Shown: piece by piece, positions 1-64,000 of the stretch
How the letters are laid out: each line of letters starts with the position of its first letter
Numbering within the stretch: the first letter of the stretch is position 1
DNA from: Candidatus Roizmanbacteria bacterium
GTDB taxonomy: Bacteria; Patescibacteriota; Microgenomatia; UBA1406; HO2-37-13b
Direction of reading: 5' to 3'
DNA: 64,000 nt
NCBI GenBank assembly: GCA_038127095.1
Contig: JAYPGZ010000004.1
Span: forward strand, 16,663 to 80,662
Notes under the pieces: generated by a model
Database searches by the model: none
Told to the model about the DNA's origin: nothing
Seen by the model: the letters and a program-made list of their open reading frames with translations, nothing else
Position numbers and translations under genes: made by a program

Positions 1-209
1 ATGAGCAGTATTCTGACGGTGAAGCCTTGCAACAAGCAATATTCGAACTTACCAAGACTGTTGGGATACCCCCTAAAAAAGCATTCCAGGCAATCTATTT
101 AGTTCTAATAAACAAGGACCACGGTCCCAAAGCTGGGTGGTTGCTATACGATGAGCTTGTCAGTAATAAGGACTTTCTGATACGTCGATTTACGAGTGAT
201 TTAGCTTAA
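1..209 (+). CDS. 3' end of a gene cut by the window edge; possibly class I lysyl-tRNA synthetase C-terminus
   Basis: Frame 3 is open from nt 3 to TAA 207-209; the track start at 27 is an internal TTG. The peptide AFQAIYLVLINKDHGPKAGWLL resembles, from memory, the conserved C-terminal region of class I LysRS. Not verifiable without a search. Confidence 0.4.
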   Translation, partial: EQYSDGEALQQAIFELTKTVGIPPKKAFQAIYLVLINKDHGPKAGWLLYDELVSNKDFLIRRFTSDLA

Positions 210-7784: not shown

Positions 7785-9014
7785 AACTTGCTCAATCTCA
7801 ATTAGTCTATTGTATTTGGCAAGTCGTTCGCTTCTGCTCATGCTGCCAGCTTTTAAATAATCTGCATCACACGCGTATGATAGGTCGGCAATAAATGAAT
7901 CTTCCGTTTCACCAGAACGGTGAGAAATGACTACTTTCATATCGGCATCTTTTGCAAGTTTTATTGCTTCTACGGTTTCGTAAAGTGTGCCGATTTGATT
8001 GGGTTTAATTAGTACCGCATTAGTTGCTTTTTGCGCGATTCCTTTTTGAATACGGGTCGGATCTGTCGTATATAAGTCATCTCCAACTATAAGACCAGTA
8101 TCGCCAAAGTTTTTAGTAAACGTTGAAAAGTTGCTCCAATCATCTTCTGCAAATGGATCTTCGAAAGAATATACTCCAAATGTAGTTTGAAGCGTATGGT
8201 AATAGGCGGAAAGTTCTTGTGCAGATAGGCTTTTATTTTGTTTTTTAAAGAAATATGCTCCATCTTTATATAGTTCCGAAGCAGCAATGTCGACGCCATA
8301 CTTAATATCTTGTTCGTGATTAGAAAGGTTAACAGCGCGTTGAATTATCTCAAACACTGCCTCGTTAGAATCTAGGATCGGAGAGTAGCCGCCTTCGTCA
8401 CCTTTGAGCAATGAAAGATTTTCTTTATTAAGTAATTCTCCTAAGGTTTGGAAAACTTCTTGGGCAATTTCCACAGCCTTGCTTGGAGATGTGCTTTGGG
8501 GAATAATCATAAATTCCTGAATATCAAAATTCCAGTTTGCGTGAGCACCGCCATTGACAATATTTACCATGAGTTTCAAAAATTGGGGTTTTGTTTTTGG
8601 GAAATAATATTCATTAAGTGTTTTCCATAGCGGTTCGTTCTTATAAAGTGAGAATGCCCGGGCGCAGGCAAGTGAAACAGCCAAAATTGAATTTGCTCCC
8701 AATCGCGATTTATTTTCAGTTCCATCAAGCGCTATCATCTTATCATCAAGTTCTTGAAGTAAACCGATGTCGTGCCCTTTTAATAAAGTATTAATTTCAG
8801 TATTAATATTGTTATCTGCTTTTCGAACTCCTTTTCCTGCAAATGCATTTTTGTCACCATCGCGCAGTTCTACTTTTTCATGAACTCCAGTAGACGCTCC
8901 ACTAGGAACTGATGCTTTTGCTATCATGCCATTTTGTAATTCAACATATGCTTCTACAGTCGGATTGCCGCGGGAATCAAGAATTTGAATTGCATGAATT
9001 GAGTGGATTTTCAT
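7758..9014 (-). CDS. eno: enolase
   Basis: ILDSRGNPTVEA near the N-terminus, SHRSGETED, KYNRLIEIE. Start at ATG 9014 (MKIHSIHAIQILDSRGNPT) gives the canonical N-terminus. The track start at 9053 lies inside an inverted repeat. Confidence 0.95.
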   Translation of the reverse strand: MKIHSIHAIQILDSRGNPTVEAYVELQNGMIAKASVPSGASTGVHEKVELRDGDKNAFAGKGVRKADNNINTEINTLLKGHDIGLLQELDDKMIALDGTENKSRLGANSILAVSLACARAFSLYKNEPLWKTLNEYYFPKTKPQFLKLMVNIVNGGAHANWNFDIQEFMIIPQSTSPSKAVEIAQEVFQTLGELLNKENLSLLKGDEGGYSPILDSNEAVFEIIQRAVNLSNHEQDIKYGVDIAASELYKDGAYFFKKQNKSLSAQELSAYYHTLQTTFGVYSFEDPFAEDDWSNFSTFTKNFGDTGLIVGDDLYTTDPTRIQKGIAQKATNAVLIKPNQIGTLYETVEAIKLAKDADMKVVISHRSGETEDSFIADLSYACDADYLKAGSMSRSERLAKYNRLIEIEQVEILRMRSE

Positions 9015-9030
9015 ATTAAGAAGCAACTCC

Positions 9031-9099
9031 GTGAAAACGTTATTTGCTCGCAATTCACCCCATGGGGGACCCCAATTGACTTCGCAAACAAGTTTTCAC
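9031..9099. other. 69-nt imperfect inverted repeat with a GC-rich centre, between the exonuclease gene and eno
   Basis: GTGAAAAC (9031-9038) pairs with GTTTTCAC (9092-9099). Inner arms TTATTTGC/GCAAACAA and CAATT/CAATTG. The centre CACCCCATGGGGGACCCC is self-complementary. Confidence 0.5.
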
Positions 9100-9112
9100 T
9101 ACGTTGCAATTT

Positions 9113-10045
9113 CTAGAATAAATCTAACTGATCCGTTTTTTCCTTTACTTTTTCAACCTTTTCAATCCTAGCTGTTGGCTGTTTACTATCAAAATATCTC
9201 TTAAGCAACGTATTAAATTCTAGCTTTTCAAAAAAATCTCTTAGACTTTGATTGTACGGTTTTCGTACACAATTATCAATTGAAATGTCGAGCTCTAAAT
9301 CTCGAACTATAGTTGCAAGTTTCTGCGACATAAATGCGCTTTCTTTGCCTTTTTCCAATAACTCTCGTGTTTTGGGTGAAGTAACTTCATCGAGGTGATC
9401 ATAAATATTTGCGACCGTTTTAAATTGAGCGAGTAGTGTTGCTGCTGTTTTTGGACCAATGCCCGACACGCCTTTATAGTTATCAGAAGGATCTCCCATA
9501 AGGCCTTTTAACTCAGGAATTTTATCGGCTGGGATCCCAAAACGCTCTAATGCAGTTTCTGGAGTATATAATTGTATTTCGGTAAGTCCCTTTTTAGGAG
9601 CAATGACAAATGTTTTATCATCAACGAGCTGTACAATATCTTTGTCACCGGTAAGAATGTATGTAGTGAAACCCTGAGCATAGGCACGTTTTGAAATTGT
9701 TCCAATAACATCATCTGCCTCAAATCCTGCCTTTTCAATATGAGTAATTCCGGCGCTTTCCAAAAATTCTTTAACATAGGGAAATTGTTTTGACAGTTCA
9801 TCTTCCATTTCGGGACGATGGCTTTGATACTCCGCATATAATTCTTTCCGAAAAGTCTTTACGGGAGTATCAAAACATACACATACATGCGTAGGAGAAA
9901 AGTCATCGATTGTTTTAAGTAGCATAGAAGCAAATCCATACACAGCATTGGTAAGAGTGCCATTGTGAGTTTTAAATCCGGGAAGCGCATGGTATGCACG
10001 GTGAATTAATGCATTACCATCAATTATCAGAAGGATGTTATTCAT
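9113..10045 (-). CDS. standalone 5'-3' exonuclease (Pol I N-terminal/FEN-like domain)
   Basis: 310 aa. LLIIDGNALIHRAYHAL, GFEADDVIGT, TGDKDIVQL, and the H3TH segment GVSGIGPKTAATLL. No polymerase domain follows. Confidence 0.9.
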   Translation of the reverse strand: MNNILLIIDGNALIHRAYHALPGFKTHNGTLTNAVYGFASMLLKTIDDFSPTHVCVCFDTPVKTFRKELYAEYQSHRPEMEDELSKQFPYVKEFLESAGITHIEKAGFEADDVIGTISKRAYAQGFTTYILTGDKDIVQLVDDKTFVIAPKKGLTEIQLYTPETALERFGIPADKIPELKGLMGDPSDNYKGVSGIGPKTAATLLAQFKTVANIYDHLDEVTSPKTRELLEKGKESAFMSQKLATIVRDLELDISIDNCVRKPYNQSLRDFFEKLEFNTLLKRYFDSKQPTARIEKVEKVKEKTDQLDLF

Positions 10046-59273: not shown

Positions 59274-59819
59274 ATGCGAGTAAATGTTGAAGAGGTTCTA
59301 AGGACAATTCATGAACAGTCCGACCCGATAGTTCAAGCAGAGCTTATTGAAAAAGCTGTAAATGCAGGAATTCGCGTGGTGCAAATTGCACATGAACTCG
59401 ATATGTCTTCATCATACGTAAGTCATTTGCGTCGTCTAAAAAAGTTGCCCCCGCTTATTATTAATGGTTATTATGATAAAACGATTTCACTTAGTCATCT
59501 GTTTATACTATCGCGTCTAACTACGCCAGAAGAAATGATAAGCACCTATGAAGAAGTACTTACTCAGAATTTATCTGCTGCACAAACGGAAAGAAGAGTG
59601 TTTGAGAGAATGTCTGGCAAGCAAATACAGGGAAAAAAACTTTCTAAAGAATGGTTCGATGATCTTGGTAACGTATTTAAAGGTATTTCCTCGACAATTT
59701 CAGTTACCGCTATTCAAACTCGCCGTAAAGGCGAAATCGTTCTTACATTCAATGGATCTCTCGAGCAAACGAGTGCACTGTTTGAAAAAATCAAGACTCA
59801 CTTAAAAAAGGATTCGTAA
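59274..59819 (+). CDS. ParB/Spo0J-like HTH protein lacking the N-terminal ParB (CTP-binding) domain
   Basis: aa 20-85 match the ParB HTH pattern (QAELIEKAVNAGIRVVQIAHELDMSSSYVSHLRRLKKLPPLIINGYYDKTISLSHLFILSRL). There is nothing upstream of it in the ORF. Confidence 0.5.
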   Translation: MRVNVEEVLRTIHEQSDPIVQAELIEKAVNAGIRVVQIAHELDMSSSYVSHLRRLKKLPPLIINGYYDKTISLSHLFILSRLTTPEEMISTYEEVLTQNLSAAQTERRVFERMSGKQIQGKKLSKEWFDDLGNVFKGISSTISVTAIQTRRKGEIVLTFNGSLEQTSALFEKIKTHLKKDS

Positions 59820-60357
59820 CAGGTCCCATATTGGAGACTGGAAAATAACGGTAAATTACTTTTCCAATTATATTTACTTGAGGTATAAATCCGAATTCAC
59901 GAGAATCTGAAGAATGTGTGCGATTGTCACCTAATACAAATACATAGTCTTGTGGAACAGTAACCTCTTCTCCTTCTTGCATAAACCCTGTTTGAAATGT
60001 TTTGGTTGGTTCCGTGATGTATGGTTCTTCAAGAAGTGCTCCATTTCGATATACGTGTTCTTTTTGTATTTTGATTCGATCTCCTGGCACTCCAATTATT
60101 CTCTTCACAAAATCGACCTCACTATTGCTCAAAGAGGCAAAAACAATAATATCGCCATATTTGGGTTTGTCTAGTCGGTATGCTATTTTACTGGTAAGAA
60201 TATAGTCGTGAGTTTGGAATGTTTTTTCCATAGATGCGCCTTGAACCTGATTGGGCGCAATAATGAATAGATATAAGACAATAAACAGAGAGCCAACAAA
60301 GACTACTGTTTCAAGAATATCCATGACAAAATCTATCAGGCGTTTTACGACTTGCAT
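59791..60357 (-). CDS. lepB: signal peptidase I
   Basis: N-terminal TM, catalytic GASMEKTF (SMxPT-like), KRIIGVPGD, GDNRTHSSDSREFG. Start at ATG 60357 (M3) is favoured by the -10 spacing. Confidence 0.9.
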   Translation of the reverse strand: MQVVKRLIDFVMDILETVVFVGSLFIVLYLFIIAPNQVQGASMEKTFQTHDYILTSKIAYRLDKPKYGDIIVFASLSNSEVDFVKRIIGVPGDRIKIQKEHVYRNGALLEEPYITEPTKTFQTGFMQEGEEVTVPQDYVFVLGDNRTHSSDSREFGFIPQVNIIGKVIYRYFPVSNMGPVTNPFLSES

Positions 60358-60363
60358 ACGCAT

Positions 60364-60490: not shown

Positions 60491-62761
60491 TTAGGCGAGG
60501 AAGTAGTTTCTGCGAGCGATAATAAATCCAAGAAGTAAGAGTCCTATGACCGTTATAGTAGGATAGTTTTTTTGAGCAAGCTTTTCCTGACACTCTTTGT
60601 CGCACTTTGCTAGTTTAGGTTTCGATTCGGTTTTTGCCTTTGCAACAGTCTTTTGCGCACCTTTTACTGCTCCATACCCGCTATATGTACCTTGTGTGGT
60701 ATTTGCTGCAGTTGGAAGCAGGGTACCGCCGAGTAAGCTTACTGCAGGAGAGTTGGTAGTTGCATTAGTAGTAGAAGTACTTGTAGTGCTATTGCTTGCT
60801 GATCCTGAGTTGCTTTCTGATCGTTTATTAATGCGTACCATTGCCGTTGAGTTGTTGTTGCTGTAATTTGCTTCGCTGCGCGAGCTACTAATGCTTGCGG
60901 TGTTTGCTAAATCTGATTGCTCAAGTGAACTGTCAGTCTTCACCATAACTGAGACCGCTCCTGTTTGTCCTGGTTCAAGGCGTCCGATATTCCACGTAAC
61001 GGTATTTCCTGCTACAGTTGATCCTGCCGGTGTTCCAAGAAGTGTTAGCTGTGCAGGTAAGGAATCGACTATTTTTACATTGTCTGTAAATGTATTTCCA
61101 AAATTTCCGTACGCAATGGTGTAGGTGAAATTATCACCGGCATTGTGACTTGGTTGGTCAACCATTTTAGAAACTACCAGTTCTGGTCGTGGGAAAATAA
61201 TGTTTCCGACAAAATCATCAAAAATATTTATTACGGCAAAAAACCAGTTGTCTCCGGTGATATTAGTATTGCCCATGGTAACTATATTTGCATTTGTTTG
61301 AGCATTGCCAGTATTTATTGAGGCGTTGAACCGACCGGCTTCATTTCGTCCGGTATTGGACAGTAGGTTAATATTATTATCTACAGTTAAATTATTCGTG
61401 TTTTCAATAACAACTGTAGACTTATTTAATTGATTTGCATTGCTTTGCAAGGAGTCACCCGTATTTGTAATGAGTGTGGAATAAAGGTTTGGCGCAGAAG
61501 GATTACCTGCTTGTGGAATAAGCATATATGAGCTATCTAAACCAATAACTTGACCATCCCATTTTCCATACCGATTAATTAATAGAATAAAGAAATTATT
61601 CGCTAAATAATTCGAATTGACCATGTCGATAACATTGTGGCTACTGTTTGCGTCACCGGTCACAATTGATCCGAGCGTATTGAAATTAACAGTATCGATC
61701 ATTACGTTGTCACCTGTTGTATTGGAACTAGCTACACGCTCAGTAACAGTAGCATTATTGGTATTTTTTATTATTGTTTCTTTTTCATTAGTGACAGACT
61801 GATTGACTTGTGTGCTGTTACCAGTGTTGGTAACCTGCGATCCGAAAATAAGTGGGGTAAAACTGTTGTGTAATACATCTAGTTCATACGGTAAAATAAT
61901 GTCTCCATGTTGGCTGCCAAATAAGTTGATAACCCCATAGAAGTAGCAATTTCCAACCAGATTTGTGTTTGCCATTGTAAATAAGTTAAGAGCGGAATAT
62001 GCATCGCCTGTATTGACTGAAGTTCCTGAAGATATGTTATTTATCGCAGAATTATCTCCAGTGTTTGATGTAAGGGTAATATCATTCTGAATAGTAGCAT
62101 TATTATTGTTTCTGATGACAAGTTCTGAGTTAGTTGTAGAAGTATCGATGAGCTTTACGTTATTTCCTGAGTTTTCAATGGTAAATGATTCTGGAGTAAC
62201 AATTGTTCCAGGAGCAAAACACGGTACAATAGAAGATAGGTTAATGTCTTGATTGCTGTCTTCAAAAACGTCCTTAATAACGACTGCTGCACTTTGTGCA
62301 ACTACGTTTGTATTTACTACAGTTGAAATGTTCTGAACAGTTTGCGCGTCTCCAGTAGTTATGGAATTTGTTCCGCCATTGAGAGCGATATTGTCAGTAA
62401 GGGTATTGTCGCCAGTATTGTTAGTAGCATCTATTGAGCGATCAATATCCGCATTATTCGTATTTTCAATTGTAGTCTCAAGGGTATTAGTTTCAGATGT
62501 GGTAACTACAACGTCGTTTCCAGTATTTGTTTCATAAGTAACTTCTTCTGGAGTAATTATAAGTGTCGCCGAATCGGTGGCTGATGTGTCAGTCGTTATC
62601 TGTTCATCTGTTCCAGCTTGATCGGTTACGGTTGGAGTCGGTGTTGGTTGCGTAATTTCTTCAGCAAGAATAGGGGAAAGCGAATTTAAAAAAATGCAAA
62701 AAATAATCAAGACCGATACTATTTTTTGAGTTGTCGTAGAAGTTGCAATACGGGTTATCAT
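60491..62761 (-). CDS. large surface protein: signal/anchor, Thr/Pro linker, four ~100-aa Asn-rich repeats, DUF11-like domain, Ser/Thr/Asn-rich stalk, C-terminal TM with RR tail
   Basis: Start at ATG 62761 (MITRIATSTTTQKIVSVLIIFCIFLNSLSPILA). Repeats at nt ~61190-62539 each carry TNTGN..(E/K)NTNNA..NTGDN..TGDA..NTN. DUF11-like LVVSKMVDQP...WNIGRLEPGQTGAVSVMVK at ~60935-61180. C-terminal ITVIGLLLLGFIIARRNYFLA. Confidence 0.75.
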   Translation of the reverse strand: MITRIATSTTTQKIVSVLIIFCIFLNSLSPILAEEITQPTPTPTVTDQAGTDEQITTDTSATDSATLIITPEEVTYETNTGNDVVVTTSETNTLETTIENTNNADIDRSIDATNNTGDNTLTDNIALNGGTNSITTGDAQTVQNISTVVNTNVVAQSAAVVIKDVFEDSNQDINLSSIVPCFAPGTIVTPESFTIENSGNNVKLIDTSTTNSELVIRNNNNATIQNDITLTSNTGDNSAINNISSGTSVNTGDAYSALNLFTMANTNLVGNCYFYGVINLFGSQHGDIILPYELDVLHNSFTPLIFGSQVTNTGNSTQVNQSVTNEKETIIKNTNNATVTERVASSNTTGDNVMIDTVNFNTLGSIVTGDANSSHNVIDMVNSNYLANNFFILLINRYGKWDGQVIGLDSSYMLIPQAGNPSAPNLYSTLITNTGDSLQSNANQLNKSTVVIENTNNLTVDNNINLLSNTGRNEAGRFNASINTGNAQTNANIVTMGNTNITGDNWFFAVINIFDDFVGNIIFPRPELVVSKMVDQPSHNAGDNFTYTIAYGNFGNTFTDNVKIVDSLPAQLTLLGTPAGSTVAGNTVTWNIGRLEPGQTGAVSVMVKTDSSLEQSDLANTASISSSRSEANYSNNNSTAMVRINKRSESNSGSASNSTTSTSTTNATTNSPAVSLLGGTLLPTAANTTQGTYSGYGAVKGAQKTVAKAKTESKPKLAKCDKECQEKLAQKNYPTITVIGLLLLGFIIARRNYFLA

Positions 62762-62771
62762 GTAAGCCCGT

Positions 62772-62800
62772 ATTATAAAACATTGGCTATTATATTTCAA
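62772..62800 (-). promoter_or_regulatory. promoter (TTGAAA-17-TATAAT), 10 nt from the ATG at 62761
   Basis: Minus strand: TTGAAA at 62795-62800 and TATAAT at 62772-62777. The TTG of the -35 is the spurious track start codon. Confidence 0.65.
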
Positions 62801-62832
62801 CCGATAGCAAGTAAAAGTTAGCTATATACGGG

Positions 62833-62877
62833 AATCCCCCCGCTCTCTGTACCTTTCGGCTGAGAAGCGGGGGGATT
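62833..62877. terminator. 12-bp perfect GC-rich hairpin between the two surface-protein genes
   Basis: AATCCCCCCGCT (62833-62844) pairs with AGCGGGGGGATT (62866-62877). The 21-nt loop has inner CTC/GAG and CC-TTTC-GG pairing. A T-run follows on the plus strand only (TTTTATT), not on the coding minus strand. Confidence 0.45.
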
Positions 62878-62928
62878 TTATTAAAAGCGCTTTAATTCCC
62901 TGTTGATCTAAGAATGATCACTCTTGGA

Positions 62929-64000
62929 TTAAAGCCAAGCCAACCAAGCAAGAAGTCCCAAAGCTCCACCCATATAGGTTGAGTTATGGTTTCCTCCAGC
63001 CATGAAATTGTGTCCCGCACCGGCATTTCCGGTGAATGTACCAAATCCGCCAACATTACTACTTGAAGTGTTTGCGCCACTTGTGTTTGAAGCAAAAGCG
63101 GTTTGAACGCCTAAGTATGTGTTAGCATTTAAAGCAGTAGCGACGGTGGTGTTGTTAGCACTTAAATTAAGTGTTGCACTAGCACCAGTGTTCAATACGT
63201 CTGCTAAGTTGCTTCCCATTGGTAAGTTAAGTCCCACACCAGTTTGATTGCTATTTCCGTTTACGTCGAAATTAGCAAGTGATGCTGCATTTCCAGTTCC
63301 GATAACTCCGGTTCCAATGTTTGCATTGGAAGAGTTATTACCGGTATTGTTGGCAGCAAGTACTGTTTGTGCGACGAACATGTTGTTTTGAGAGAAAACA
63401 GTCAAAACATCAGTTTGGTTGGTGCTTGAATTCAATGTAAAGTTAGAACCTGTGTTGGTAACAAGATTGTTATTACCAGTGCAGGTGTTACAAGGAGTTC
63501 CAGCAAGACCCAAAACTTGAGTTCCGTTATGGTTTCCTTCAACATTCATGTTGCTTACAGAAACTGCATCACCGGTCAAAATTCCTGTGTTTCCAATGTT
63601 TGAATTAGAAACGTTATTACCAGTGTTGTTATTTGAAGCGTTGGTTTGAGCAACGGCCAAATTGTTACTATTTGTAACGCCGACTACTGTTGTAGAGTTA
63701 GCGCTCAAATTTCCGGTAAAGTTTGATCCAGTGTTGGCAACATCACTGTAGTTGTTAGCTCCTCCGTTAGAAGGAAGAACGACTGCAGTTGAATTGCTGT
63801 TTACATCAGTGTTCATGTTAGAAACTGATCCAGCATTGCCAGTTACAATTCCTGCTCCAGTTGAACAACATAAGCTAATGTTTCCTTCTTGAACATTGTT
63901 TCCAGTGTTGTTGTTAGAGACATCAGTTTGTGAAACGGTTGCGTTGTTTACGTTAGTAACATTGACAACAGTTGTGTTGTTAGCTGAGCTGTTTACAGTT
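62929..64000 (-). CDS. Asn/Thr/Gly-rich repeat protein, 5'-truncated by the window edge (paralogous in style to the 60491-62761 protein)
   Basis: My hand translation of 63817-63999 in the same frame has no stop, so the ORF continues beyond the track ATG at 63816 to the window end. At least 4 repeats of ~88 aa: NTGSNfT.N.S.N.T...(V/L).QT....NNTGNN.SN.N(I/V)G..G..TG(N/D)A.S..N..V.GN(H/S)N.T. Ends with hydrophobic GGALGLLAWLAWL. Confidence 0.7.
   Translation of the reverse strand, partial: TVNSSANNTTVVNVTNVNNATVSQTDVSNNNTGNNVQEGNISLCCSTGAGIVTGNAGSVSNMNTDVNSNSTAVVLPSNGGANNYSDVANTGSNFTGNLSANSTTVVGVTNSNNLAVAQTNASNNNTGNNVSNSNIGNTGILTGDAVSVSNMNVEGNHNGTQVLGLAGTPCNTCTGNNNLVTNTGSNFTLNSSTNQTDVLTVFSQNNMFVAQTVLAANNTGNNSSNANIGTGVIGTGNAASLANFDVNGNSNQTGVGLNLPMGSNLADVLNTGASATLNLSANNTTVATALNANTYLGVQTAFASNTSGANTSSSNVGGFGTFTGNAGAGHNFMAGGNHNSTYMGGALGLLAWLAWL

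Follow-up and report, generated by a model that had tools for sequence, protein, structure and literature searches.

The 64,000-nucleotide window analysed here (contig JAYPGZ010000004.1 of assembly GCA_038127095.1, Candidatus Roizmanbacteria bacterium) carries, on its minus strand near its end, a gene for a secreted protein of 756 amino acids, hereafter the target, whose head is built from four copies of a repeat of about 100 residues. On the evidence of structure prediction and covariation, each repeat module is a long amphipathic antiparallel hairpin, with arms of about 27 to 33 residues and one conserved face, followed by a small aromatic capping meander. At the sequence level the repeat defines a new family, which we term the Patescibacterial long-hairpin repeat proteins. 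Co-directional genes immediately upstream encode paralogues with the same repeat, and we give an even chance to the reading that the target is the membrane-anchored member of a surface structure that would be composed of two or three such paralogues and built from the shared hairpin unit.

The four repeats were true duplications rather than an effect of N/T-rich composition. They shared 33 to 42% pairwise identity over 99 to 115 aligned positions, and their local alignment scores of 141 to 187 far exceeded those of composition-preserving shuffles (46 to 50 ± 8; z 11.5 to 18.3; 0 of 500 shuffles reached them). The initial annotation, made from the DNA sequence alone, had placed four repeats of about 100 amino acids at nucleotides ~61190 to 62539, and we found them at 61187 to 62533. 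It had also listed a set of ordered motifs for each repeat. Their order stood as described, but the motifs themselves were degenerate, each being inexact in one repeat or, for NTGDN, in two: TNTG[ND] was exact in repeats 1, 3 and 4 and read ENSGN in repeat 2; xNxNNA[TD][IV] was exact in repeats 1 to 3 (ENTNNLTV in repeat 4); NTGDN was exact in repeats 1 and 2 (TTGDN in repeat 3, NTGRN in repeat 4); and TGDA was exact in repeats 1 to 3 (TGNA in repeat 4). The aromatic blocks that had been quoted for repeats 2 to 4 matched the translation exactly. The terminal block of repeat 1 was homologous to them yet non-aromatic (AAVVIKDVFEDSNQDINLS).

Structure prediction with AlphaFold2, for which a 118-sequence family alignment served as input, gave a full-length model with a mean predicted local distance difference test score (pLDDT) of 77.7, in which most repeat blocks exceeded 90, and a repeat-only model with a pLDDT of 86.5, a predicted template modeling score (pTM) of 0.78 and strands of 27 to 33 residues. 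This check had been proposed in the initial annotation, with disorder or a lack of periodicity counting against the suggested fold; the models were confident and periodic. In every repeat, DSSP assigned a continuous outgoing strand of 31 to 33 residues and a return strand of about 27, separated by a short tip with breaks at NTGDN on one side and at TGDA on the other; the short strands of the aromatic block came next.

Covariation pointed to the same topology. A hidden Markov model (HMM) of the repeat gathered 543 repeats from 118 proteins, and mean-field direct coupling analysis (DCA) was run on 475 of them. The dominant signal was a single antiparallel ladder (i+j ~97 to 99) running from 45/52 to 22/74 through the pairs (45,52), (43,56), (41,57), (38,59), (36,61), (32,67), (30,69), (28,69), (26,72) and (24,74), and it was equally strong in both halves of 996 concatenated pairs of neighboring repeats. 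Such a ladder describes a long hairpin and is incompatible with a parallel solenoid, because the ladder pairs would there lie several coils apart. Additional couplings at (68,86) and (59,82), together with local turns, supported a small aromatic meander packed against the end of the return arm. Conservation alternated strictly along both arms, with an entropy of 2.0 bits at inward positions (Leu/Val/Asn/Asn/Ala/Ile/Asn/Ile/Val/Ala on one arm, Ala/Ala/Ala/Val/Asn/Val on the other) and 3.2 to 3.4 bits at outward positions, which were variable and mainly Thr, Asn, Asp or Ser. Across the repeat family, N26, G41, N43, T56, G57, N70 and N72 were 90 to 99% conserved. The regular Asn/Thr/Gly spacing that had drawn attention at the outset is therefore real and structural, since the conserved Asn residues lie on the conserved inward face of the hairpin, but the stacked Asn ladders that had been read from it do not fit this arrangement.

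That earlier reading, in which the repeats form a β-solenoid fiber with stacked Asn ladders in the manner of curli, Fap or autotransporter passengers, has some points in its favor: near-invariant Asn or Gly residues recur every ~13 to 17 residues (N26, G41/N43, G57, N70/N72, N84), some DCA couplings are spaced i to i+13..18, and the best, though insignificant, Foldseek matches in the PDB were FapC, CsgA, Ag43 and EtpA. We nevertheless consider it very improbable. A solenoid calls for short strands in coils of 15 to 25 residues, whereas the predicted strands are continuous over 27 to 33 residues, and a covariation ladder spanning more than 20 residues per arm would pair residues that are two to four coils apart in a solenoid. 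The Foldseek matches had E values of 0.5 to 10, template modeling (TM) scores of ~0.05 and root mean square deviations (rmsd) above 30 Å; neither Curlin_rpt, Chlam_PMP nor any other β-helix Pfam family matched at E ≤ 1; and hhalign against E. coli CsgA, with a manually entered CsgA sequence, gave a probability of 0.1%. The (26,43)-type couplings, the strongest at i to i+17, were considered as a sign of a staggered sheet or solenoid and dropped, being present only in the first block of the concatenated pairs and thus an artifact of repeat type.

Repeats differed according to their position from 1 to 4, and the same position-specific features recurred in the family consensus. This differentiation across the family, along with the pTM of 0.78 of the modeled array, argues for one fixed multi-repeat unit rather than beads on a string.

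Searches for known relatives of the repeat were uniformly negative, in agreement with the initial annotation, which had not assigned it to any named family. A Pfam scan of the target returned DUF11 only and nothing on the repeats, an NCBIfam scan returned no match, and PDB sequences yielded no relevant match to the target and 0 matches at E ≤ 10 to a 34-sequence repeat profile. In Foldseek comparisons of the repeat-only model, nothing significant was found in the PDB (best E 0.54, TM score ~0.05, rmsd >30 Å, a scatter of β-solenoids) or among the BFVD viral models (best E 9e-3, TM score ≤0.1). Pfam scans of 52 diverse family members identified Ig-type domains (DUF11 in 24, as well as DUF7507, DUF7619, fn3, NEW3 and CARDB) and never the repeat. 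Phage sequences gave no tblastn match to the repeat region, and our search of the literature found no description of this repeat. Kinship to archaeal sheath proteins was considered and rejected, as the paper on the sheath proteins reports no bacterial homologs.

The family is large and centered on the Patescibacteria (candidate phyla radiation, CPR). A search with the full protein recovered 171 homologs, and the organism names given by the sources were all Patescibacteria (Roizmanbacteria, Levybacteria, Kerfeldbacteria, Minisyncoccia, 'Patescibacteria group') apart from one metagenome-assembled genome (MAG) labeled Marinimicrobia. Their product names were 'hypothetical' or referred to an accessory domain only (DUF11, fn3, peptidoglycan-binding). 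Building a repeat HMM and searching other genomes had been among the proposed checks; run against 1.84 billion cluster representatives (50% identity), the repeat profile matched 3,936 clusters at E ≤ 1e-3, 2,796 at E ≤ 1e-10 and 1,443 at E ≤ 1e-30, mostly with four to six matched stretches, and the names sampled from these matches were hypothetical, Parcubacteria or Patescibacteria. Members of the 118-protein set mostly had four or five repeats by the repeat HMM. We define the family as secreted proteins with at least four tandem units of ~93 to 97 positions in which the seven residues listed above are near-invariant; for the four copies in the target, the family HMM gave E values between 1e-19 and 5e-28. 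Anchors differ among members (a C-terminal transmembrane helix in many, PG_binding_1 in others, sometimes with extra fn3 or Ig domains) and the four-repeat head is constant, a combination typical of displayed surface modules.

An additional N-terminal unit, either a fifth repeat or half of one (consensus ...TGDA...NxN ahead of repeat 1), occurs in more than half of the family members, and the target keeps only an apparent remnant of it (SATDSATLII) within aa 60-76 (nt 62534-62584). Two cysteines, C181 in the tail of repeat 1 and C272 where the aromatic block of repeat 2 begins, were invariant in the 12 closest relatives, and the family consensus shows CxxxC in the repeat-1 tail. A disulfide linking the two repeats through C181 and C272 is possible.

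Paralogues of the target lie directly upstream. In the window, the paralogue, here called B, had been listed as an open reading frame (ORF) at 62929-63816 (295 aa), but its frame continues without a stop as far as the window edge; it contains the hairpin repeat without the aromatic block and ends in a short hydrophobic C-terminal tail. We retrieved genome loci (n = 32) with a 12-sequence alignment and ran the repeat HMM on all of their ORFs. One or two co-directional repeat-bearing genes stood immediately upstream in 29 of the 32 loci, and when all neighboring ORFs were clustered, these paralogues were the only neighbors conserved across lineages. Locus L003, whose target orthologue is 77% identical, has three consecutive genes on the same strand. 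Gene A (632 aa) encodes a signal peptide, a region that matches the repeat model four times and lacks the aromatic block, and a C-terminal sortase signal made up of LPATG, a transmembrane segment and KLRK; gene B (8646-9830; 394 aa) encodes a signal peptide, about four short repeats recognized by eye and the tail GGAWNLLALLAWL, and is the full-length orthologue of the truncated ORF in the window; the target orthologue is the third. The order A (~590 to 700 aa), B (~310 to 420 aa) and target characterized loci of the Microgenomates type, and in Moranbacteria-type and other Parcubacteria-labeled loci one or two small secreted proteins (~150 to 165 aa) preceded a target of 830 to 970 aa. An LPXTG motif (LPATG or LPTTG) with a transmembrane segment and basic tail was found on the first gene in 11 loci, and every protein inspected had a signal peptide. 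Neither Pfam nor NCBIfam matched the paralogues, and a search with a small Parcubacteria paralogue returned 5 matches only.

Several features of the paralogues are recorded as separate observations. Paralogue B in the window has two Cys pairs (LCCS and CNTC) and the hydrophobic tail GGALGLLAWLAWL, which is too short for a transmembrane helix and carries no basic residues; tails of this kind recur across lineages. The small partners in L016, L021, L026 and L027 (e.g., L026 3920-4417 and 4483-4977) comprise one or two minimal hairpin units of ~50 aa. Several of the first small partners have Cys-rich termini (e.g., CCKKPQKCPCP and CPCAGQPNCGC), which suggest disulfide-linked polymerization, and the second small partner carries an acidic region as well as an amphipathic C-terminal tail.

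Between the repeats and the anchor, the target carries a single immunoglobulin (Ig) domain. The initial annotation had called it DUF11-like, and the assignment held: PF01345 matched aa 528-642 over profile positions 2-114 of 114 (E 4e-18; 66.2 bits against a cutoff of 24.6), the predicted domain had a pLDDT above 90, and its best Foldseek match in the PDB was 9IFR (E 5e-6, target TM score 0.72, rmsd 3.4 Å), with the pilins BcpA, SpaD and EbpB among the other matches. DUF11 has lately been renamed CLIPPER, and the crystal structure 9IFR shows a CnaA-like Ig domain (Costa et al., bioRxiv 10.1101/2025.04.25.650565 / Protein Sci 2025). CLIPPER domains are a typical stalk of fibrillar adhesins and often contain a Lys-Asn isopeptide bond whose formation is catalyzed by Asp (bioRxiv 10.1101/2025.04.25.650565). 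In the target, K532 in the first strand, D566 in IVDSLP and N620 in LANTA occupy the strands expected for this triad, with a K/D/N spacing of 34/54 that compares with 33/58 described for 9IFR (bioRxiv 10.1101/2025.04.25.650565). D566 and N620 were at least 90% conserved among close relatives, and the Lys was kept in 10 of 12. From this residue pattern, an intramolecular Lys532-Asn620 isopeptide bond is plausible.

The predicted layout of the target is as follows. The C-terminal transmembrane helix would tether the mature protein, with its short basic tail in the cytoplasm, and the disordered stalk of ~90 residues would cross the wall zone. The single CLIPPER domain would come next, probably locked by its isopeptide bond, and would bear a rigid distal head of four differentiated modules of ~100 residues, each a hairpin kinked at the near-invariant NTGxN and TGDA motifs and followed by the aromatic β-meander. 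The conserved hairpin face (Ala/Ile/Val with buried Asn) would pack within the four-repeat unit, leaving the variable Thr/Asn-rich face exposed to solvent. In the proposed multi-paralogue structure, the proteins, held by different anchors (a sortase/LPXTG link to the wall, secretion with a short hydrophobic tail, or the membrane in the case of the target), would come together beyond the membrane and join through their hairpins to build a single structure on the cell surface, in which the target may act as the membrane-proximal holder and the LPXTG paralogue as the wall-linked component. Such a structure could be a coat, a fiber or a contact apparatus of the ultrasmall cell, showing its variable polar surface outward. 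A more specific version, in which the paralogues polymerize via their hairpins into an undescribed, Patescibacteria-specific envelope structure (an S-layer-like coat or the host-contact fibers seen on ultrasmall cells, with a fold that has no solved representative), is tentative, and we regard it as rather unlikely.

A number of results weigh against the reading of a multi-paralogue structure. Co-assembly of the paralogues is inferred from synteny and the shared repeat only. In the 996 concatenated pairs, inter-repeat DCA was dominated by same-position couplings that reflect paralogy and by echoes of intra-repeat contacts, and the coupling A70-B41 (1.11) was barely over the 99th percentile. 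There is no sortase gene in the window, and a sortase signature occurred within 10 kb in only 1 of the 32 loci. The genes do not necessarily form one operon, since the target has a strong promoter of its own and a terminator-like hairpin lies upstream of it. K532 was replaced in 2 of the 12 close relatives, so that the isopeptide bond would not be universal. Finally, the hairpin faces showed no conserved exposed patch that could serve as a ligand site.

This last result also speaks against the main competing explanation, in which the target is a stand-alone protein of the fibrillar-adhesin kind whose four-repeat head, kept at a distance from the membrane by the CLIPPER domain and the disordered stalk, binds a host-cell or substrate surface by itself, and the paralogues are independent adhesins of other specificity. 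Signal peptide, head, CLIPPER stalk and anchor are arranged as in the fibrillar adhesins described among DUF11 proteins, the exposed hairpin face is hypervariable, as under diversifying selection, and the gene's own promoter and the hairpin upstream would suit an independent unit. Cultivated Patescibacteria are episymbionts that need to attach to a host. Fibrillar adhesins, however, usually have many tandem stalk domains where the target has one, and the head architecture is conserved over very deep CPR lineages, whose partners must differ. Nor would it explain why paralogues with the same repeat and complementary anchors so strictly occur together, and we consider this explanation an improbable, if credible, one.

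The length of the hairpins raises another idea, that on contact with a host cell the four of them, by themselves or together with those of the paralogues, insert into the host membrane as a β-barrel pore for nutrient extraction, like β-pore-forming toxins. Arms of ~27 to 33 residues equal those of toxin stem hairpins, the alternation of conserved and variable positions is strict, and the episymbiotic lifestyle of CPR bacteria requires a route for metabolite uptake. Yet the conserved face consists of Ala/Val/Ile and buried Asn, the opposite one of Thr/Asn/Asp/Glu, and because neither is lipid-like, and there is no aromatic girdle, such a role is very unlikely. The hairpins are moreover predicted to be stably packed (pTM 0.78), the aromatic blocks resemble core caps, and Foldseek against the PDB returned no pore-forming toxin fold.

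The coordinates of the target, its domains and the upstream elements are collected in Table 1. As the initial annotation had it, the ORF (60491..62800, minus strand) counts 769 aa from a TTG and 756 aa from the ATG, as the ORF listing, the translation and the starts of orthologues all confirmed. The ATG at 62761 is the real start, because 12 orthologues (34 to 84% identity) align from the Met that it encodes, the closest six opening with MITR, and the TTG at 62800 coincides with the start of the −35 hexamer. Close orthologues with 72 to 84% identity have the same start, and a protein identical to the target (P0001) is present in public assemblies.

Table 1. Features of the target gene and of the region upstream of it, in window coordinates.
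Feature	Coordinates	Strand	Basis
Upstream paralogue B, cut by the window edge	62929..64000	minus	Open frame to base 64000; blastp against target E 5e-4; repeat HMM match
GC-rich hairpin between paralogue B and promoter	62833..62877	minus	RNA fold −41.2 kcal/mol for 116-nt region, z −5.0
Sigma-70-type promoter, TTGAAA-17-TATAAT	62772..62800	minus	11/12 consensus score
Coding sequence, 756 aa + stop	60491..62761	minus	Translation from ATG at 62761
Predicted signal peptide, aa 1-33	62663..62761	minus	n-, h- and c-regions; AlphaFold2 helix aa 3-27
Disordered N-terminal linker, aa 34-76, with PTPTPT and likely fifth-repeat remnant	62534..62662	minus	pLDDT <50, aa 31-71
Repeat 1, aa 77-177, predicted long β-hairpin and non-aromatic terminal block	62231..62533	minus	Repeat HMM E 1.9e-19; AlphaFold2 strands 85-115, 139-165
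Repeat 2, aa 195-292, predicted long β-hairpin and aromatic block YFYGVINLFGSQHGDIILP	61886..62179	minus	Repeat HMM E 4.7e-28; AlphaFold2 strands 202-233, 254-280
Repeat 3, aa 310-410, predicted long β-hairpin and aromatic block	61532..61834	minus	Repeat HMM E 1.2e-22; AlphaFold2 strand 317-348, then strands over 371-397
Repeat 4, aa 431-525, predicted long β-hairpin and aromatic block WFFAVINIFDDFVGNIIFP	61187..61471	minus	Repeat HMM E 5e-27; AlphaFold2 strand 438-469, then strands over 487-513
CLIPPER (DUF11, PF01345) CnaA-like Ig domain, aa 528-645; candidate triad K532, D566, N620	60827..61180	minus	Pfam and Foldseek
Disordered stalk, aa 646-734, S/T/N-rich then Lys-rich	60560..60826	minus	pLDDT <50 at aa 655-719; composition
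Predicted C-terminal transmembrane helix and short basic tail, aa 735-756 (...IIARRNYFLA)	60494..60559	minus	AlphaFold2 helix aa 735-755

Judging from its predicted segments, the target is a type I membrane protein that would be secreted through the Sec pathway by a bacterium of Roizmanbacteria-like affiliation (Microgenomates, Patescibacteria/CPR), and the predicted signal peptide and transmembrane helix support the proposal that it is exported and tethered to the membrane by its C terminus. Signal-peptide cleavage would fall after ILA and before EE, and a site of the type xxA|E(E) was kept among orthologues in the 12-relative alignment. The other elements that had been noted could all be located in the translation: the PT linker (PTPTPT, aa 39-44), the S/T/N-rich stalk, evident from composition and predicted to be disordered, the Cys pair (KCDKEC, aa 719-724) and the transmembrane segment with its RR tail (aa 733-756, ending in ARRNYFLA). 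A hydrophobic C-terminal end, mostly with basic residues, was found in most of the distant family members inspected. As previously stated, the target has no LPXTG motif, the nearest strings being IPQAG (aa 415) and LPTAA (aa 682), and the Pfam scan identified no SLH, CWB2 or other wall-binding domain in it. The stalk contains a GGTLLPTAA motif and a CxxxC pair (C720, C724), both of which are kept in close orthologues. Within the otherwise variable stalk, GGT(L/I)LPTAA (aa 678-686; LPTAA at 60704-60718, minus strand) stands out as conserved in these orthologues, one of which reads LPTGA in place of LPTAA. Since LPTAA sits 48 residues ahead of the transmembrane helix, the motif is not a canonical sortase signal, and it might be a site of processing or modification.

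The gene had been credited with one of the best promoters in the window, and it does have one of only three sites that score at least 11/12 in the 64 kb. The −10 hexamer ends 10 nt ahead of the ATG, and no Shine-Dalgarno sequence precedes the ATG, which would make the mRNA leaderless or almost leaderless. In the orthologous loci L003 and L002, the −35 and −10 boxes were conserved, and the −10 hexamer with the next 10 nt was invariant. The GC-rich hairpin was also kept in both loci despite changes in stem sequence and is probably the terminator of the upstream paralogue. These conserved intergenic elements support the view that the target is transcribed from a promoter of its own, and that this transcription is real, conserved and probably strong. 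The intergenic region as a whole (62762-62931, minus strand) was ~90% identical to its counterparts in L003 and L002 (both 9825-10010), and the proteins are 73 to 77% identical. A 52-nt stretch right after the upstream stop codon (about 62877-62928) and ACGGGCTTAC directly before the ATG were invariant in the window, L003 and L002. Besides the terminator hairpin and the promoter, the region may hold a further regulatory element that is conserved; an Rfam scan of it gave no match.

Directly downstream of the target lies a signal peptidase I gene (59791-60363, minus strand). A dedicated signal peptidase, as in tapA-sipW-tasA, was considered and rejected: the enzyme is adjacent only in Roizmanbacteria-like loci and in L025 and L033, and because this adjacency probably amounts to local housekeeping synteny, we did not count it in the system. 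The gene content of the window (dcw cluster, FtsA/FtsZ, IleRS, RodA, L21 and signal peptidase I) fits a CPR bacterium of the Microgenomates type, and the nearest named genomic relatives are Roizmanbacteria. The closest genomic relatives, with 73 to 77% protein identity and the same flanking genes (L002, L003, L006, L007 and others; 'binchicken'/SRP-coassembly MAGs), are titled 'uncultured Gammaproteobacteria bacterium', and other such records bear the titles Pseudomonadales or Bdellovibrionales. Both their gene content and the fact that the nearest named relatives are Roizmanbacteria indicate that these titles are placeholders or wrong taxonomy.

The Patescibacteria (CPR) represent a very large and mostly uncultivated part of bacterial diversity, and how they build their surfaces and make contact with their partners is largely unknown. 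The present locus leads to a large family of secreted proteins that comprises thousands of sequence clusters and has no name in any domain database. It also provides a specific candidate, open to testing, for a surface structure shared across the lineage, and one that could be addressed in structural work, with antibodies or by labeling in enrichment cultures. Even if the target were only a monomeric adhesin, the repeat would still be a new domain family deserving of a Pfam entry.

Among known systems, fibrillar adhesins with CLIPPER domains (9IFR) share with the target a signal peptide, a distal non-Ig head, a CnaA-like CLIPPER domain and a C-terminal anchor, and the Lys/Asp/Asn pattern of the target would likewise fit an intramolecular isopeptide bond. 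They differ in having a tandem array where the target has one CLIPPER domain; the anchor of the target is a plain transmembrane helix, neither LPXTG nor a Gram-negative system, and its head is an undescribed four-repeat hairpin module that occurs alongside paralogues with the same repeat. Fibrillar adhesins have been defined by a signal peptide, tandem stalk domains, an adhesive domain and an anchor (Monzon et al. 2021, PMC8286594). Compared with that definition, the target has the signal peptide, one stalk-type domain and the anchor, and no known adhesive domain was found in it. With respect to S-layer proteins, SLH and CWB2 are absent from the target by Pfam, and some family members carry PG_binding_1 in place of the transmembrane helix.

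Streptomyces chaplins comprise short secreted forms (ChpD-H) and long LPXTG-anchored forms (ChpA-C), and curli follow a similar logic with CsgA and CsgB; in both, the anchored copies hold or nucleate a surface polymer. By analogy, the adjacent paralogues described here share one repeat unit, with some copies apparently anchored and others free (LPXTG, hydrophobic tail, transmembrane helix). The resemblance does not extend to sequence or fold, as neither the target nor its paralogues gave a Pfam match to these systems, the hhalign comparison with CsgA was negative as given above, and the predicted unit is a long antiparallel hairpin rather than a chaplin domain or a curlin strand-turn-strand coil. 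The β-solenoid amyloids and passengers FapC (9NQD), CsgA (8C50), Ag43 (4KH3) and EtpA (8CPK) are, like the target, all-β, rich in Asn, Gly and Thr, repetitive and extracellular, and they were the top non-significant Foldseek matches (E 0.5 to 2.2, TM scores 0.04 to 0.06, rmsd 32 to 46 Å), but the strand length and covariation ladder of the target are incompatible with them.

The nearest known design principle for long strands with little globular core is that of the staphylococcal G5-E rods of SasG and Aap, surface repeats that form elongated, thin, long-stranded β-sheets and serve as rigid projections. No such match was found with Foldseek in the PDB, nor a G5 match with Pfam, and because one face of the hairpin is hydrophobic and conserved, the target would have a core in which several hairpins are packed together, and not a sheet of one layer. 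Sortase-assembled pili of Gram-positive bacteria are encoded by clusters of paralogous secreted proteins with CnaA/CnaB isopeptide Ig domains and LPXTG. In the loci studied here, the combination of LPXTG, hydrophobic stretch and basic tail that marks sortase substrates is lacking in the target and present in the upstream-most paralogue of related loci (LPATG/LPTTG), the Ig domain is on the target only and not on its paralogues, 31 of the 32 loci have no adjacent sortase, and the shared unit is the hairpin repeat rather than an Ig pilin domain. The design of a secreted protein with an Ig stalk and an anchor is thus familiar, and the head module, its predicted long-hairpin fold and the set of differently anchored paralogues, all of them widespread in Patescibacteria, are new.

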